Shown here piece after piece: positions 1,097 to 37,400 of a stretch of DNA of 64,000 nucleotides. The notes under the pieces were generated by a model that searched no databases, was not told the origin of the DNA, and was given only the letters and a program-made list of their open reading frames with translations. The DNA is from Escherichia coli. GTDB lineage: Bacteria > Pseudomonadota > Gammaproteobacteria > Enterobacterales > Enterobacteriaceae. How positions within the stretch are numbered: the stretch's first letter is position 1; the number at the start of each line of letters is the position of its first letter. The stretch is taken from assembly GCF_003019035.1 (NCBI RefSeq), contig NZ_CP027448.1, one strand, 5' to 3'. Position numbers and translations under genes: made by a program.

Positions 1097-1335
1097 CTCG
1101 CCTCCTCAATACTTAAACAGGGATCATTTCGCAGAGGATACTACAGTTTTTTGAAATCAGCGACTTGAGAATTGTGACAAAGATCTGTGTTGGCGCACAA
1201 ATCAACGGGGATTACTGTCGTTTAATGTGATTTAAACTGTGAAATAGTATGGTTTTCAGTTATGGAAACGCCGGGAGCGGAGAAAACTTGCTTTTTCCCG
1301 TTTCCGGGGTTGGACAACTGAGCAACGCGAAGGCG

Positions 1336-1926
1336 TCAGCTACGATGTTCAGGTGGCTGCTGATCAGCCCCTGTTGTATTCAGCCATTCGCCGGTCATCT
1401 GCAGCAGTTTTCTGGCATCGTGGCTTCTGAGCAACGGTATACCAGCCTGCCTCATAACCTCTTCCAGAAGAATATCCCGGCGTCTGCGTTCCGGTCGTAA
1501 ATGGCTGGCATCATCCAGCTCTACTGCTGCAACAATACTGAACGAACGCCGCTCAACGATAACCACATCAACATGCCACTGGGACACCATCCTGAATAAC
1601 TGCCACCACTGACGTGATCGTGGCCGGATATTCCCGTTCAGCTGGACGATATCAGCGCCCCGTACCTGCGGGCACAGATACCACCGCTTCATATCCACAA
1701 TCCTGAACAACCCTTTCATGAAACTGACCTCTCTTTCTGTCAGCAACGTTTTCTGACGCTGCCAGTATTCACCGCTGACCAGTATTCGCTCAGCTTCACT
1801 GGGGCGTATGCCTGCTGCATGTAACCGTATCAGTGCGGGAGGACAGTTTTTACTCCTCCGGAATATTATCCGGACAGACAAAACAGCTATAATAATAACG
1901 ACTACAATGAAAATAATTAAATTCAT
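1336..1926 (-). CDS. Membrane-anchored hypothetical protein, possibly DUF2726/NERD-like nuclease fold
   Basis: ORF with N-terminal hydrophobic helix (MNLIIFIVVVIIIAVL) and motif HVDVVIVER...AAVELDD; likely start at 1926 rather than the track start 1995. Confidence 0.5.
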   Translation of the reverse strand: MNLIIFIVVVIIIAVLSVRIIFRRSKNCPPALIRLHAAGIRPSEAERILVSGEYWQRQKTLLTEREVSFMKGLFRIVDMKRWYLCPQVRGADIVQLNGNIRPRSRQWWQLFRMVSQWHVDVVIVERRSFSIVAAVELDDASHLRPERRRRDILLEEVMRQAGIPLLRSHDARKLLQMTGEWLNTTGADQQPPEHRS

Positions 1927-3429: not shown

Positions 3430-3456
3430 CCTCCTCTCTCTGAGGGAGGCTTTTTT
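3430..3456 (+). terminator. Hairpin plus T-run (plus-strand orientation), role unclear
   Basis: gcctcc-loop-ggaggc followed by tttttt immediately before the finO stop region. Confidence 0.3.
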
Positions 3457-4016
3457 CATTTCTCATCAAGCACGGCCTGAAGTTCTGCCTTTATCCGGTT
3501 CTGGCGGCGGATTTTATCCAGACGCGTTGCCGCATACGCTTCCTCCTCCTGAGAAATATGCTCCGTCACATACCCTTCCGTGTCATACCGGCAGGCACCG
3601 GCTTTCATGGCACACAGATAGCTTTCTGAACGGGTGATGGCCTTCAGCGCCCTGCGCAGTTTTTTATGCGAGAGTGGGATATTCCGCTGCGCCACGTCTT
3701 CCATTAACACGTCCCGGATACCACAGGCCAGAAGCCGGGGTGTGTCACCGTCAAACAATCCCGGCCACCAGGGCTTCAGGGTGTTCACGGCCTCATCCAG
3801 CGTGGGCAGGTTCAGATAAATGGACAGCGCCTGTCTGGCCTGCGCTTTTTTTGCCGCCAGCTCCGCTTCCCGGGCTGCTTTCTCGGCCAGCTTCTGCTTT
3901 TTCACCTTCCATTTTGGTGGCGTGGTGACATTGATGATGGTTTTCCGGCTGCGGACAGGCGTCTCTCCTTCCGTTTTCCGCTTCAGTGTCAGTACAGGTC
4001 GTTTTTGCTCTGCCAT
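3456..4016 (-). CDS. finO: FinO fertility inhibition protein (RNA chaperone for FinP)
   Basis: ORF contains [40 protein letters not shown]..., near-identical to F/R100 FinO; start set at the internal Met, track ORF starts at 4091. Confidence 0.9.
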
Positions 4017-4118
4017 GCTTACTCTGACCTTCGTGAAAATATGCCCTGCAGGCCGTTGAAACAACTCATCGTAACAGGAAGTTAATTTCAACGACCTTTA
4101 ACGTATAAATACTGACAA

Positions 4119-5802: not shown

Positions 5803-8800
5803 TCAGTCTCCGCCCAGGGTTTTCTCTTTCTGCAGGTCACGAACCATATCCCGCTCCATCTGCTGCAGACGCTCCTGCAGCAGATTTTCCCGGGCAACCT
5901 CCCGGACCGCTTCCCGCTCCCGTTGTGATTCACGCAGCACACTATCCGGCAGCGCGGCTTCCCGTTCAGTTATGGCAGCCCGGTCACGCTCCTGCCCGGC
6001 AATTTCCCTGACAGCCAGCTCTGTTTTGCCATCCGGCAGGTCAGGTTTGTTCTCTGCCATTTTACGGACAATTTCATCTGCGCGGCGTTCCGTTTCACGG
6101 CGGATGGCCTCTTCAGCCTGCCTCTGTGCCAGCACCTCTGCCGTGACCGGTTCGCCATTTCCGGCTCCCGGCTGGACGCTGTTGTCCGGGATATCCCCCC
6201 ACACGCGGCCACCGGTTATGGCACCGGGATTCCACGGACGGCCTTCACCGGCGATTCTTACCACCACACCACTGTCAGGATTATCACGGGCAATCCGGAC
6301 ACCATCCTGCATATTATCAGCCAGCAGGCTTTCTCCGTTACGGCTGCCCTGCAGGGCCACAAACTGTGCATCTTCACTGCCCTTCACCCGGCCTTCACCA
6401 CTGAATCCCCGCAGCCCGTTTCCGTCATCCGTGGTCAGCGGGTTCAGCCAGATACCGGCAGACTTGCCGTTACGGTCAAAAGCCGGCAGTGCCACATACG
6501 GCTGTGGGTATTTGCGCCCCGGAGCAATAAACCGTGCAGGACTGTCTCCCCCGGCCAGCCCCGCCTGACGAAGAACGGCTCGGCCTGCCGCCACGTCCCG
6601 CAGCTCCCGCGCCGTACTGAACAGCCGCTCTGCATTCATGACCTCCCGGTCCGATTTCGGCTCAAACACATCGTGGGCAGTTCCTTTCTGTTCGGCATTG
6701 TTAATGGCATCCGTCCAGCCCTGACGGTTATCGGTGTACACCTGCACATGCTGCTTCATACGCGACAGGGCCACGTAGGCTGACTCAAAGCCGGCCATCT
6801 GTTTCCGGCTGCCTTCCGTGCCTTCAAGCGCAATGGCAAAGGTTTCACTTGCCCCCTGCGCACCGTGGGCGGTGATGGCATAGGCCAGGTCAATATGTTG
6901 CTCTGCCCGCTCCTGACCGGGGCGAATCACCCGGGTCTGCTGTCCGCCCGACAGCGTGACACTGTCACCGGAAACCGCTGTCACCGTCCAGACGCTGTTG
7001 GCCACATAGCCGCGCTCCCGGTCACTCTTCGTGAAGCGCATCCGGTCACCGGTCCCCACCCGGATGGTGTCCGGGGTGTACAGTGTGACACCTTCAGCCA
7101 CCGCCTCCCGGGGCGAAATCAGCCGCGTGTTACCTTCCGCATCCTGCAGGGTTATCAGCCCGTCACCCTTACTGATACCGGCAATCCGGTGATACACATT
7201 ATCCACCAGGACAAGTGCGTCCCGATGTGTCTCCCAGGTGGAGAGACGACGCAACTCCCCGTCGCGTATATTCGCTGTGTTCAGGACAGGCACCATGACC
7301 TGCTCTTTCCCCAGCTCACCGGCCTTTTCCCGTGCATCATGAATCATGCTGTTCAGTACGCGCCGGTCCTCATTCAGGTGCGTGACAATAAGCGTCTGCT
7401 CCCGTGCTTCCGGCGTCCTGCCGGTATAGTCGCGGACAATGGCTTCATACAGTGTCATGGGGACATCCGGAAAAGCCTCGCCGTTCTGCATCGCCTTCTG
7501 CTGCGCTTCTGCCAGTTTCGCTTCCTGGCTGTGACTGAACTCCGTCACAGAGTGCTCCGGTACCCATGCGCCCTCCTGACGTGGCACCTGAGACGGTTTC
7601 ACACTCTCAAGCCCGGACAATGCCCTTTCCACATCCCGGTTAATCAGGCTGTATACCGCCTCCCGCAGTTCCGGCGTCTGACGCACAATCTCCTTCATGA
7701 TGGCCACATCGGCAGCGCTGCGCGTCTGCTGGAGACGGAAAGGCTGACCGGGCGCGATGGCCTGCAGCTGGTCCGTGTCACCGCTGGCCACTGCACGACC
7801 ACCACCGGCCGCAATCAGGGCATATGCCCGTGCCATGTCGGTATTGCCCACCATTGAGCTCTCATCGAGCAGGAACAGCGTGTTGCTGAAATCCGGCGTT
7901 TCTCCGCTGCGCAGCTGCAGCTGCGTGCCATGCAGAAAGGACGCCAGTGTCTGTGCATCCACGCCGGCGCTGCGCATCTCCCCGACCGCACGGTGCGTGG
8001 GCCCCAGCCCCACGACACGGGGACGCTCACTCTCCGGCAGCATGTTCACGGCTGACATCACCGCCCGGAACTGTGTGGTCTTACCCACACCGGCATAGCC
8101 CTGCACCACCGTGAAACGGTCGGACGTTTCCAGTATCATGCGGGTGGCGGCACGCTGTCCTGATGTCAGACTCTCCATGACTCCGCCAGGGACTCTCTCC
8201 ATCAGCGGCGTGACCGCCTCCTTACCTTCGAGAATATGGCGAAGAATGCTCTTTTCTGCCTCATACGACGCACGGGAAACCAGCAGGCCTGTGCCATAGC
8301 CTTTTGCCACATCCACATACAGTAAATCACCGCGTTTTATCTGCGCATTGATTTCCCCTCCCAGTTCAGTAAAACTGGTTCCTTCTGCAGCAAACGACTT
8401 CGCCTCTGTCAGCAGGTCCACCATGCTGAAGGCCAGGTTTTTACTTTCCAGCACAGGAAGGGCCAGATGAATGGCCTGCTGTGCCGGCGTGTGAAGCCCG
8501 GCTTTCTGCAGACTGATAGCGGTTTCCAGCAATGTCTCACCGGCACGCGCCTTTATCTGCTCAGAAACCACCGTAAAGGAGGGATGGCGGGCAAGGTTTT
8601 CCGCCGTACGGGTTTCATCCAGCGAGGAATACAGCCGGACATCACGACCGCTGCGGGCCAGACCGTTCAGGGTGGCGTTGTCCATTGCCATCTGTGTGAC
8701 GGAGGCAAAAACCTTCGCACTGTCGCTGACGGAATGCCCGGGCGTTTCCACCCAGCCGTTCTCCAGCTTCAGTGCCGTGAACGGTGAATCGCTCACAGGC

Positions 8801-11788: not shown

Positions 11789-13942
11789 TCAGAAATCATC
11801 TCCCGGCTCAACATCCTCCCCGCGCTCCCGGTGCACATTAATGTTCACCTCTTCACGACGCTGCATCTGCTGCTGGATGTCCGGATGATTTTCCTGTTGC
11901 CATGCCTCATAAGCGGCCATATCCACCACTTCACCGGATTCACTGATCCCGGGTGGCAGTTGCTGTTCCATCTCTTCTTCCGGTTTCATTTTCAGCTCCT
12001 GCTCGATCCCCCCTACCGGAACATTCACACCTGAATCTGACTTCTTATCGTTGATGGCAGGAGACACCGGCTGTTGCGGCTGTTCAGCCTGAGTCACGTC
12101 TTCTCCGGAAACAACCTCCGGGACATCCGGTTCGAAGAGGCTGGCCATCTGACGACCTTCTGCTTCCCTTGCGGCAAGTACGGCACTCAGACGGTTCTCC
12201 ATTTCCGGGTTGATGTCACGCGGAATAAACTCCGGAGCGACCTTCGGTCGTGTCTGATATTTCAGAGAGAGTTTTACTGCCGGATACGGTCCGGGCAGGG
12301 TGACATAACAGGTCAGATCCGGCAGAGACTGAATGTCGGAATAACTGACCAGCGTCTGGCGCTCCATATCCTTACCGGTCGATACCCCGTCACGTACCGG
12401 ATCAGCACCGTAGGAATACTGCTCGCTGGCTTTCAGGTGCTCTTTCTCACCAATTTCACCGGCAGCGAACTCTGCAATCTTATGGCTGGGAGAACGGAAA
12501 AAGGCACGGGTGTTCATGACGTCAAACAGCGAGGCAGCCGCTTTCTCACCGTAGATATCTTCCAGCTGGGCATAGGACTGGATACCAAACACATAACAGC
12601 CACCGAACTTACGGGCTTCCGGCAGGATCTCCACCAGGTCCGGCAGTTTGTGTAACGTGGGTAACTCATCACAGAAAAACCACACACGACGGTTACGGTT
12701 TTCTCCCATTGCCAGCAGACCACGAATGGCAATGGACAGCCACATGGAGATCACCGGCTTCAGGGAGGCATGGGTGTCGGCATTCGACGAAATAAACAGC
12801 CAGCCGTTTTTCTGATCTTCCCGGACACCACGCATCCAGTCACGGATGGTAAAAGACTCACCGTTATGCTCAATCCCCTGCAGGTAACGGATGGCTTTCA
12901 CGTAGTTGGTCAGCACAGCACGGATGGAAATCGCCGTTTTCTCAATTTTCTCTTCCACCAGGTTGGCCGCCGGTGAATTACGCAGGAAGGTACGCAGTTT
13001 TTCGATTTTGATGGAAAGCAGTGTGTCCACCAGTTTGCTGTAGCTGCGGTTGGGGTCATTACGCATCAGGTACGCCGCTTCCGCAAAAATGGTACGTCCT
13101 GACCCCTGCCAGAACGGGTCCTCTTTTGTGCCCATCGGGATCAGCGTGTTCGCGGTATTATCAAAATCCGGCTGTGTCAGGCACTCCTTCCACAAATCCC
13201 AGGCGGCACAGCGGGCATCCAGCGGATTCAGGATTTTATCGATGGAGGGATCATAGTAACTTTTAACAAATTCCCCTGAACGGTCATAAATCACCACCAT
13301 ATCTCCACGCTGACGGGCGTAGTTGGCCAGACGACGGATAACTTCCGACTTACCGGCCCCGACCGTGCCGTGCAGACAGAAGTTCTGGATTTCGGAATCC
13401 CGGATAATCGGCAGGTCGCCAATCCGTATATCGGAGTCCTTGCCGTCTTTTTTCAGCATCCGGGCAACGTCTTTCGGATTGTCTGTCAGCTGACGACCAC
13501 CTGTGACTTCATTTTCGCTCTGTTGTTTACCCTGACGCCCCAGAATCCAGGAGACAACAAAGAAGGTAATCAGGCAAATAACCAGTGCCACAACTGTGGC
13601 CAGAACGAATGCGGACCATAGCTGCTCTCCGCACCAGATCATATATTTATCATGCAGTACCTGAGCAGCATTCATCCGGAAGGTTTTGCCGTAATACTGG
13701 ATCTCATATACCGGCTGGGACTTGATTAAATCCCGCATGCCTTCCAGCGTGGTACACCACCAGTAAATACAGCCGTTCACAAACGTCTGCCAGCTTATTT
13801 TTACCCATAAAACCAGACCAACGAGTATCCAGAAAAAAATAAACAGGCAGTAAAGCATGATATTGGCGATCTGGCTGAACATGCGGATACGCATGGACGC
13901 AATCTGACCGCCCTGGGTCATATCCTTTGCGTTAAAACTCAT
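11789..13942 (-). CDS. traD: TraD type IV coupling protein
   Basis: 717-aa ORF with N-terminal TM segments, Walker A GTVGAGKS and Q/P-rich C-terminus; matches F TraD and gene order. Confidence 0.95.
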
Positions 13943-14193
13943 GATGATATTCCGAAGAAAAAAGTCAGTCGGACTGATTATTAATGATGAAAAGATTAAT
14001 AACCGTTAAATTCCGGCTTCGCCGGCAACACTTCACGGTCGCACAAAGAATTTGCACAACCGCTCAGTGTTTTCATATTTATTTCGGAAACGCCGGGGAG
14101 AAATAAAATTTATTTTATTTCTTTCCGGGGTTGGACAACGAGCAAAGCGAGGCGTCAGTCAGGAGGCCGGTCAGACCAGCCTCCGGAAGATAA

Positions 14194-14925
14194 TCAGAGA
14201 ATATTTGCGATTGATTTGGCCAGCTGGTCTTCGAGAACAGGCTTCGCCTCTTCAAATTTCAGGTTAACCTTGTTCGCACTGGAGACCACACGGGTCTGAT
14301 ATTTATGCTGGTTACCTGTTTCAGTACTGGTCTGAATTTTCGCACCTGAAGTGCCCTGACGCAGGGCGGCAACATTATCTGTTGTCACCGTTGTCTTAGT
14401 ACGCTCTGCAATCTGCACATCCGTGATCATGGTATAGTTCACATCTTCCACCATCGCATCTGCAGCCATACCCACCAGACCAGCAGCAAGGCCCACACCG
14501 AGTGTGGCACCGGCAGAATTGGAATTATATCCGGTAATACCGGCACCTAACGCTGCACCAACAGCTGCGCCTTCATAACCACGGTTCAGCCATCCCTGAG
14601 ACTCCCGCAGATCCATCTTATCGGCCTTCAGCACATTCGCCTGAATCCAGTAGTAGGCTTTATCCGGAGAAGTCACCACCTGATACCCTTTTGCTTTCAC
14701 AGCATCAGCAATTTTGCCCTGCAGCCCACTCATGTCTTTATCAGACGTGTTTTTGATCTGCAGAAATACCGTGCGTTCGCTGGCGGGTTCAAGCCAGATG
14801 GTCTCACTCATCTGGGTCTTCACCTCAAGGTTACGCTTCTTGATTGCTGTGCTCATCGCACCACACCCTGAAAGGGCCAGAGTGGAACTGACCAGTGCAA
14901 CCATCATCAATTTTTTTGTTTTCAT
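14194..14925 (-). CDS. traT: TraT surface exclusion lipoprotein
   Basis: 243-aa [50 protein letters not shown]..., matching F TraT. Confidence 0.95.
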
Positions 14926-37272: not shown

Positions 37273-37344
37273 TTTAATAATGTAAAATAAATTAAAATAC
37301 ATTATTTAGAACATAAACTAATGATTTAAAAAACAAATCAGCAA

Positions 37345-37400
37345 AAACTTGTTTTTGCGTGGGGTGTGGTGCTTTTGGTGGTGAGAATCACCAACCTGTT
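37345..37400 (+). other. oriT: oriT nic region (F-type relaxase site)
   Basis: tttgcgtggggtgt|ggtgcttttggtggtgag matches the F-family nic motif as I remember it, with the adjacent inverted repeat ggtggtga/tcaccaacc; lies between traM and gene X. Confidence 0.8.

Follow-up and report, generated by a model that had tools for sequence, protein, structure and literature searches.

An abundant, covarying hairpin element of fixed strand polarity at gene-module junctions of F-like plasmids

Why should two unrelated intercistronic gaps of one conjugative plasmid, upstream of copB and between traT and traD, carry the same non-coding sequence, and what might that sequence do there? The question is raised by a stretch of 64,000 nucleotides from Escherichia coli (contig NZ_CP027448.1; the window, hereafter), part of an F/R100-like IncF plasmid whose transfer genes lie on the minus strand, for which a first-pass annotation had proposed a shared element of roughly 90 bp acting as a terminator, a regulatory RNA structure or a recombination site. 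The core of that proposal, a conserved and structured non-coding element common to two unrelated loci, is right. BLAST of copy 1 against the window finds copy 2 at 78.9% identity over 76 columns (E=8e-11), the next-best match having E=0.04, and the 18-mer TTTCCGGGGTTGGACAAC occurs exactly twice in the window, as against 0.07 occurrences expected even with three mismatches allowed. The blocks common to both copies are GGAAACGCCGG, TTTCCGGGGTTGGACAAC and GAGCAA.GCGA.GGCGTCAG, with differing centres, and the similarity survives alignment in sequence that is not of low complexity (GC 0.47-0.58). The intervals first given for the two copies (1256-1340 and 14086-14175) do overlap the element but are too wide (Table 1): the second starts correctly and ends inside a hairpin belonging to traT. 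Both copies do lie between minus-strand genes, in the orders yihA ORF, element, copB and traT, element, traD, and the yihA stop codon (reverse complement of 1336-1338) falls within the last 4 nt of copy 1. Three single-base insertions or deletions separate the copies, which hence share no reading frame, and coding potential was rejected.

Table 1. Positions of the element copies, their parts and the neighbouring features in the window (the slash in the oriT motif marks the nick).
Feature	Position	Strand	Basis
copB	839-1096	minus	
Element copy 1, 76 nt, between DUF2726/yihA ORF and copB	1264-1339	+	covariance model, 93.6 bits
Copy 1 hairpin	1267-1311	+	folding
GGTTGGACAAC block at hairpin 3' foot, copy 1	1308-1318	+	
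Copy 1 tail, ends in GGCGTCAG	1319-1339	+	
DUF2726/yihA ORF	1336-1995	minus	
traD	11789-13942	minus	
Element copy 2, 73 nt, between traT and traD	14086-14158	+	covariance model, 76.9 bits
Copy 2 hairpin	14089-14132	+	folding
GGTTGGACAAC then tail GAGCAAAGCGAGGCGTCAG, copy 2	14129-14158	+	
traT's own stem-loop, beside copy 2 (10 nt away)	14170-14187	minus	folding
traT	14194-14925	minus	
oriT nick motif GTGGGGTGT/GGTGCTTT	37359-37375	+	motif match

The plasmid setting fixes which strand is which. Besides its transfer genes, the window holds the Rfam families CopA, FinP with the traJ leader, sok, AS-traG and AS-pc01. Copy 2 is 100% identical to the copy of plasmid F (NC_002483.1), in which finO is interrupted by IS3, and the finO ORF of the window (3456-4091) is apparently full-length; a seemingly uninterrupted finO together with a traT-traD element of F type makes the plasmid a mosaic of F-like and R100-like segments. 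Within the oriT motif, on the + strand, the nick is placed as in F TraI substrates. Of the leading-region genes, ssb, psiB and psiA lie on the minus strand in the window, and these genes use the transferred strand as template (PMC9849209). With the nick motif on the + strand, and the + strand the template of the leading-region genes, the + strand is the transferred strand; it is also the template of the tra genes.

In both copies the element folds into a hairpin that is much better formed in the + strand than the first-pass annotation could see. In copy 1, AAC (1267-1269) pairs with GTT (1309-1311) at the foot, G1270 and G1308 stay unpaired, and a 5' arm (1271-1286) and a 3' arm (1292-1307) enclose the loop CTTGC (1287-1291). 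Copy 2 repeats the plan, with AAC (14089-14091) paired with GTT (14130-14132), arms at 14093-14108 and 14113-14128, the loop TTTA (14109-14112), and two tandem G·T wobbles above the CCGG base. The stem arms themselves, GAGCGG(A)GAAAA/TTTTTCCCGTTT in copy 1 and GGAGAAATAAAA/TTTTATTTCTTT in copy 2, are an example of co-variation. Folding of both strands favours the plus sense in each copy (-38.6 against -29.9 kcal/mol as RNA in copy 1; -28.7 against -19.3 in copy 2). The tail of copy 1 holds a small second hairpin, ACGC-GAAG-GCGT, whose register varies among subfamilies by inspection: Klebsiella-type copies have GACGCC-N7-GGCGTC, and in E. coli types the register is shifted. Copy 1 also bears a private change, A1281, a G-to-A substitution at stem position 11 that gives an A·C mismatch in the plus sense.

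The same anatomy recurs throughout a family of 133 instances and 34 distinct sequences, 73-80 nt long, gathered by a gapped-pattern scan of metagenome contigs together with a few real genome matches. Folded in the + strand, all 34 variants take the form AAC-G-(16-bp stem)-G-GTT and have a loop of 4-5 nt, and in all of them the foot GAAAC-G-CCGG...CCGG-G-GTT is invariant. The four CCGG/CCGG base pairs, GGTTGGACAAC and the terminal GGCGTCAG are likewise unchanged in these pattern-selected variants, an invariance that is partly circular, since the scan pattern and the extraction regex demanded GAAAC.CCGG, CCGGGGTTGGACAAC and GGCGTCAG. Independent support for the conserved parts comes from unconstrained BLAST matches and from a divergent copy found by the covariance model (loci L134 and L245), the most divergent that the model found, in which the GGTTGGACAAC block is altered at only one base, to GGTTGGATAAC, and the CCGG base by a compensatory pair. 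Above the foot, stem positions 5-13 (the upper 9 pairs of the 16-bp stem) co-vary, position 8 being CG, GC, UG or UA and position 12 GU, GC, CG, UA or AU. The stem is continuous, its irregularities being one invariant G·G and a bulged G in a few variants. Across 35 distinct sequences, 97.1% of cells are paired and both sides have changed in 9 of 19 pairs (53 cells), in a model-based alignment that is fitted to the structure and so leans towards it, a register-free count on the raw sequences agreeing with it. None of 500 shuffles reached the observed pairing or co-variation, and sliding the partner column by 1-3 positions lowers pairing to 40-75%.

The substitutions in the stem also tell which strand is selected to fold. 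Non-Watson-Crick cells read in the plus sense as 63 G·U against 4 A·C or C·A; the same structure read in the minus sense has 88.2% of its cells paired, with 63 A·C or C·A and 4 G·U. Three of the four plus-sense A·C or C·A cells could be traced: two are single-variant substitutions, one of them position 1281 of the window, and the third comes from a bulged-stem variant of uncertain register; the fourth is seen in the model-fitted count alone. Wherever a pair has changed between G-C and A-T it has done so by way of the plus-sense G·T, and this in at least six separate lineages; every variant folds more stably in the plus sense, by 3-16 kcal/mol. A one-strand C-to-T mutational bias alone does not explain the missing A·C cells, since G-to-A changes that turn G·T into A-T do occur on the + strand. 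The stem-loop of traT serves as an internal control of opposite polarity (-19.7 kcal/mol in the minus sense, with a U·G pair, against -15.8 in the plus sense). The strand selected to fold is the transferred strand or else an RNA antisense to the genes; the pairing evidence reads alike for single-stranded DNA and plus-sense RNA, and the share of G·U (about 10% of pairs) and the tandem G·T of the F-type copy 2 would suit RNA better.

Although the covariance model detects no third copy in the window, each of the two matches at least 5000 plasmid records in PLSDB, which answers the first-pass call for a search for further copies. Among the matches listed for copy 1, one is 100% identical to it and nearly all others are 97.8-98.9% identical. 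The matching plasmids are mostly conjugative and are hosted by Escherichia, Klebsiella, Shigella, Salmonella, Enterobacter, Citrobacter and others; complete E. coli genomes, in which the median count is two, carry the element at 6209 places on plasmids as against 55 on chromosomes. In some plasmids the similarity to copy 1 is confined to the element itself and the neighbouring genes differ, and a Citrobacter F-like plasmid that lacks traT has no traT-traD copy. The element matched nothing in a phage collection or in viral contigs. Rfam gave no match at gathering level, the best scores at E up to 10 being 12-19 bits with E above 1 and no family match, and literature searches by motif and by topic found no description of it in the papers searched; the family is apparently undescribed and uncatalogued, and missing from Rfam. 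A scan of a genome collection with a bare 15-mer returned almost exclusively chance matches in unrelated phyla, the real ones being only L010, L016, L053, L063, L064 and L115. Three of these (L053, L063 and L064) are contigs assigned to Streptomyces morookaense and to a Lachnospiraceae MAG that hold enterobacterial F-plasmid DNA with the element, likely through contamination or mis-binning.

What the copies have in common, besides their structure, is the kind of place they occupy. They lie between co-directional genes, always in one orientation, either between traT and traD or in the variable stretch from the last transfer genes to copB-repA. Their 120-nt flanks fall into 14 left and 12 right clusters, to be read as minimum numbers of families, which are joined in 24 left/right combinations with sharp element ends: a yihA-type right flank is joined to four different left flanks, and one hok-type left flank to four right flanks. 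All assignable immediate neighbours lie on the gene strand, those upstream including traT, yihA, DsbA, a FinO-like protein, a colicin immunity protein and several without a Pfam family, and those downstream traD, copB, nuc, hok and others. Four unrelated ORFs terminate at a TGA inside the last bases of the element, and at L172 a 98-aa gene is inserted on the traT side of the traT-traD copy, flush with that copy's right edge. Arrays occur as well. At L197 the order is DsbA, element, a 2.4-kb module, a second and different element, and nuc-copB-repA; at L134 and L245 it is a hypothetical gene, element, a 337-aa gene, a further divergent element, a 65-aa gene, element and copB-repA, so that positions 6825-8784 of L245 (E. 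coli plasmid NZ_CP027332.1) hold three mutually divergent copies within 2 kb. At L248 the second copy is decaying (27.7 bits).

Several observations concern the neighbourhood itself. The 337-aa protein (L134, 10046-11059) has no Pfam family and occurs in about 340 plasmid records; its homologues at L246 and L247, of 66-68% identity, in Klebsiella and some E. coli plasmids, have no element nearby and adjoin genes of leading-region type (an SOS-response peptidase, Hha, ccdAB and a DNA methylase). Upstream of the element at L203, in a Klebsiella-type context, lie a colicin/klebicin-type DNase with an HNH C-terminus and its immunity protein (Colicin_Pyocin, E=3e-29). On the + strand the flanks are rich in T (about 40-44% in the adjacent 12 nt), and in seven of the 12 unrelated right flanks a stretch of 3-5 T begins 2-6 nt after GGCGTCAG.

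The element is, then, a real and abundant covarying hairpin, selected in the + sense and of fixed orientation, that lies at module junctions and in arrays. For its function our best reading, offered tentatively and short of an even chance, is that the hairpin is recognised in the single-stranded transferred DNA, at places where gene modules are joined. It would work as folded DNA while the transferred strand is single-stranded in conjugation, the hairpin foot and the invariant 3' flank forming a putative target of a protein acting on single-stranded DNA, and it may be here that accessory gene modules are joined or exchanged, much as at attC or REP hairpins, whose recognition depends on structure and strand. 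Arrays of divergent copies would be hard to produce without some insertion of units made of a module plus an element. Among the functions first proposed it is the recombination site that fits the new evidence best, with its unrelated flanks at exact ends, reassortment and arrays, yet a strict cassette model has three observations against it. The flank pairs L3/L7 and L1/L12 share 20-50 nt past the element, which fits selection-filtered random breakpoints as well as exact site-specific crossover; the distant 337-aa homologues without an element mean that it does not always travel with the gene; and artificial empty-site queries for both loci found no one-piece match among the matches listed, filled and empty sites ranking alike because the alignment bridges the element and unites the two halves of the query. 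Against module joining more generally, a crossover between copies 1 and 2 would remove traD, traI, traX and finO, and there is no recombinase among the genes examined beside the element. In a bolder version, the promoter-distal end of the transfer region would house a gene-capture platform proper to F-like plasmids, integron-like but with no integron integrase, in which element-bounded cassettes would be inserted, excised and shuffled by the TraI relaxase or another enzyme acting on single-stranded DNA; we hold it to be improbable.

Comparison with known systems places the element near several of them and inside none. It resembles integron attC sites (59-base elements) in length class, in its position at gene 3' ends in one orientation, in arrays separating single genes, in having a conserved foot with a variable upper stem, and in folding in the strand opposite the coding one; for attC, the single-stranded DNA that conjugation delivers is a natural substrate. 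Its 3' foot GTTGGAC even fits the attC R box, GTTRRRY, with an AAC/GTT pair at the base. The 5' box, however, is RGAAAC rather than RYYYAAC, so that only 3 bp of the 'R box' pair and the complementary R boxes of attC are absent; in place of extrahelical bases and an unpaired central spacer there is a single G·G; a conserved tail of 20-25 nt extends beyond the foot; the element need not accompany the gene next to it; and the annotated regions examined contain no integron integrase. With the extragenic REP/BIME sequences and their RAYT transposases it shares the form of a short imperfect palindrome at gene 3' ends or between cistrons, sharp ends in many contexts, and a hairpin with a conserved foot suited to strand-specific recognition, but there is no sequence similarity and no GTAG foot, and whereas REPs are chromosomal, number hundreds and occur in both orientations, the element is plasmid-restricted, in 1-3 copies and one orientation. 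The Frpo and ssi hairpins of F, R100 and ColIb-P9 are similar, belonging to the same plasmids and functioning in the transferred strand alone; Frpo, however, is a leading-region structure of about 300 nt that reconstitutes -35 and -10 boxes, whereas the element has 75 nt, lacks such boxes in its stem (by inspection), lies in the last-transferred region and shares no motif with them.

Other candidates were compared too. F-like oriT nick sites consist of an inverted repeat followed by the TraI recognition sequence GGGGTGT/GG, and the GGGGTTGG of the element resembles the nick sequence GGGGTGTGG, but it is base-paired in the element and invariant across plasmids with different nick sequences; the 13-nt likeness between the loop region of copy 1 (1283-1295, AAAACTTGCTTTT) and the oriT inverted repeat (37344-37356, AAAACTTGTTTTT) is at chance level (E=5.9). 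A MITE was rejected, the ends RGAAACGCC... and ...GGCGTCAG sharing only ACGCC/GGCGT and the 24 flank combinations having no target-site duplication, as was target specificity of IS200/IS605 type, the bases 5' of the element being T-rich with no fixed tetranucleotide. Xer/dif, Tus-Ter, IHF, LexA and RfaH-ops sites gave partial matches only, none of them supported. A sigma-70 promoter within the element or its junctions was rejected as well: TGGACA is a good -35 box, but by inspection neither strand has a -10 box 16-18 nt beyond it.

If the folded molecule is RNA, it would be transcribed from the minus-strand template, antisense to the genes, and the hairpin would stabilise it, process it or stop it, the transcripts running from the promoter region of the downstream gene, as by read-through of CopA or Sok, or by divergent transcription. 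To this extent the regulatory RNA of the first-pass annotation survives, for an antisense RNA and not for mRNA, the structure being selected in the + strand. The plus-sense polarity is RNA-like, with about a tenth of the pairs G·U and tandem G·U tolerated; plus-sense RNAs are present on the plasmid (CopA, FinP, AS-traG, AS-pc01); and the flanks are T-rich on both sides in the plus sense, with the T-run after the element in 7 of 12 right flanks. The left flanks, however, are unrelated, several being the RBS and coding start of the next gene, which leaves no common promoter possible, and no promoter was called. There is also no U-tract directly after either hairpin and no Rfam family, although IncFII antisense sRNAs are catalogued there, and arrays and sharp ends would go unexplained. 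We regard an antisense RNA as rather unlikely.

A lower probability still attaches to the idea that the element is an initiation signal of ssi or sso type on the transferred strand, where PriA, primase or RNA polymerase would be recruited for complementary-strand synthesis and module exchange would be a by-product of ordinary homologous recombination in conserved sequence. Rolling-circle plasmids carry sso elements, hairpins that likewise are strand-specific, keep a conserved base and move about as modules. The polarity of the element matches the transferred strand, and ssi signals, likened to sso elements, are already known on F and R100 (PMC7690428). Its stem, however, unlike that of Frpo, is too short for -35 and -10 boxes, the CTG start triplet of primase is not conserved (by inspection), and the invariant motif is absent from the Frpo and ssi sequences tabulated in PMC11541004; the element lies, moreover, in the portion of the strand that enters the recipient last, and priming would hardly account for three copies in 2 kb, of which some are decaying.

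Quite as doubtful is a hairpin of mRNA sense, on the minus strand, between cistrons or at 3' ends, which would insulate traD or copB-repA as a terminator or attenuator, or act as a REP-like barrier to 3' exonucleases. Its position speaks for it, immediately 3' of the stop codons of co-directional genes and ahead of the copy-number control genes, into which read-through would be harmful, as do a minus-sense tail that is C-rich and Rho-site-like by inspection and the terminator activity reported downstream of traT (Jalajakumari 1987, as cited in PMC9849209). Against it stands the polarity, 63 A·C or C·A to 4 G·U in the minus sense being the reverse of selection on an mRNA hairpin and the minus-sense fold being the weaker one in all variants. 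With a Rho-independent terminator the element shares a GC-based hairpin just after a stop codon, but its stem is selected in the antisense strand and no U-tract directly follows the stem in either strand (CGUUUC in the minus sense, GGUUGG in the plus). Scans of both strands called no terminator or promoter over either window copy. In Klebsiella-type and some other plasmids the RBS of nuc or of the 337-aa gene begins 12-25 nt past the element, and the RBS and start codon of the next gene lie within 12-46 nt of it (a PLD-family nuclease, the 337-aa gene, a 78-aa gene, mok/hok), which leaves no room for a promoter between, so that these genes are transcribed through the element. The element is not a Rho-independent terminator, and a shared terminator, with 1-4 A·C mismatches in the mRNA sense besides, fares worst of the three functions first put forward. 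As for chance or low-complexity similarity, the in-window E value, the thousands of family members and a co-variation beyond all 500 shuffles make it next to impossible.

In Enterobacteriaceae, resistance and virulence genes are carried chiefly by F-like plasmids, and how the backbones of these plasmids gain and swap genes outside transposons and integrons is poorly understood; a conserved, covarying element that folds in the transferred strand only, at the exact joints of gene modules and in arrays between genes, offers a concrete, testable handle on this backbone mosaicism. It also bears on what further roles the single-stranded transferred strand may have beyond the known leading-region promoters. 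Even if it should prove to be a priming or an RNA element, it constitutes an abundant structured family, in at least 5000 plasmid records and absent from Rfam, whose strand polarity contradicts the obvious annotation as a 'terminator'.
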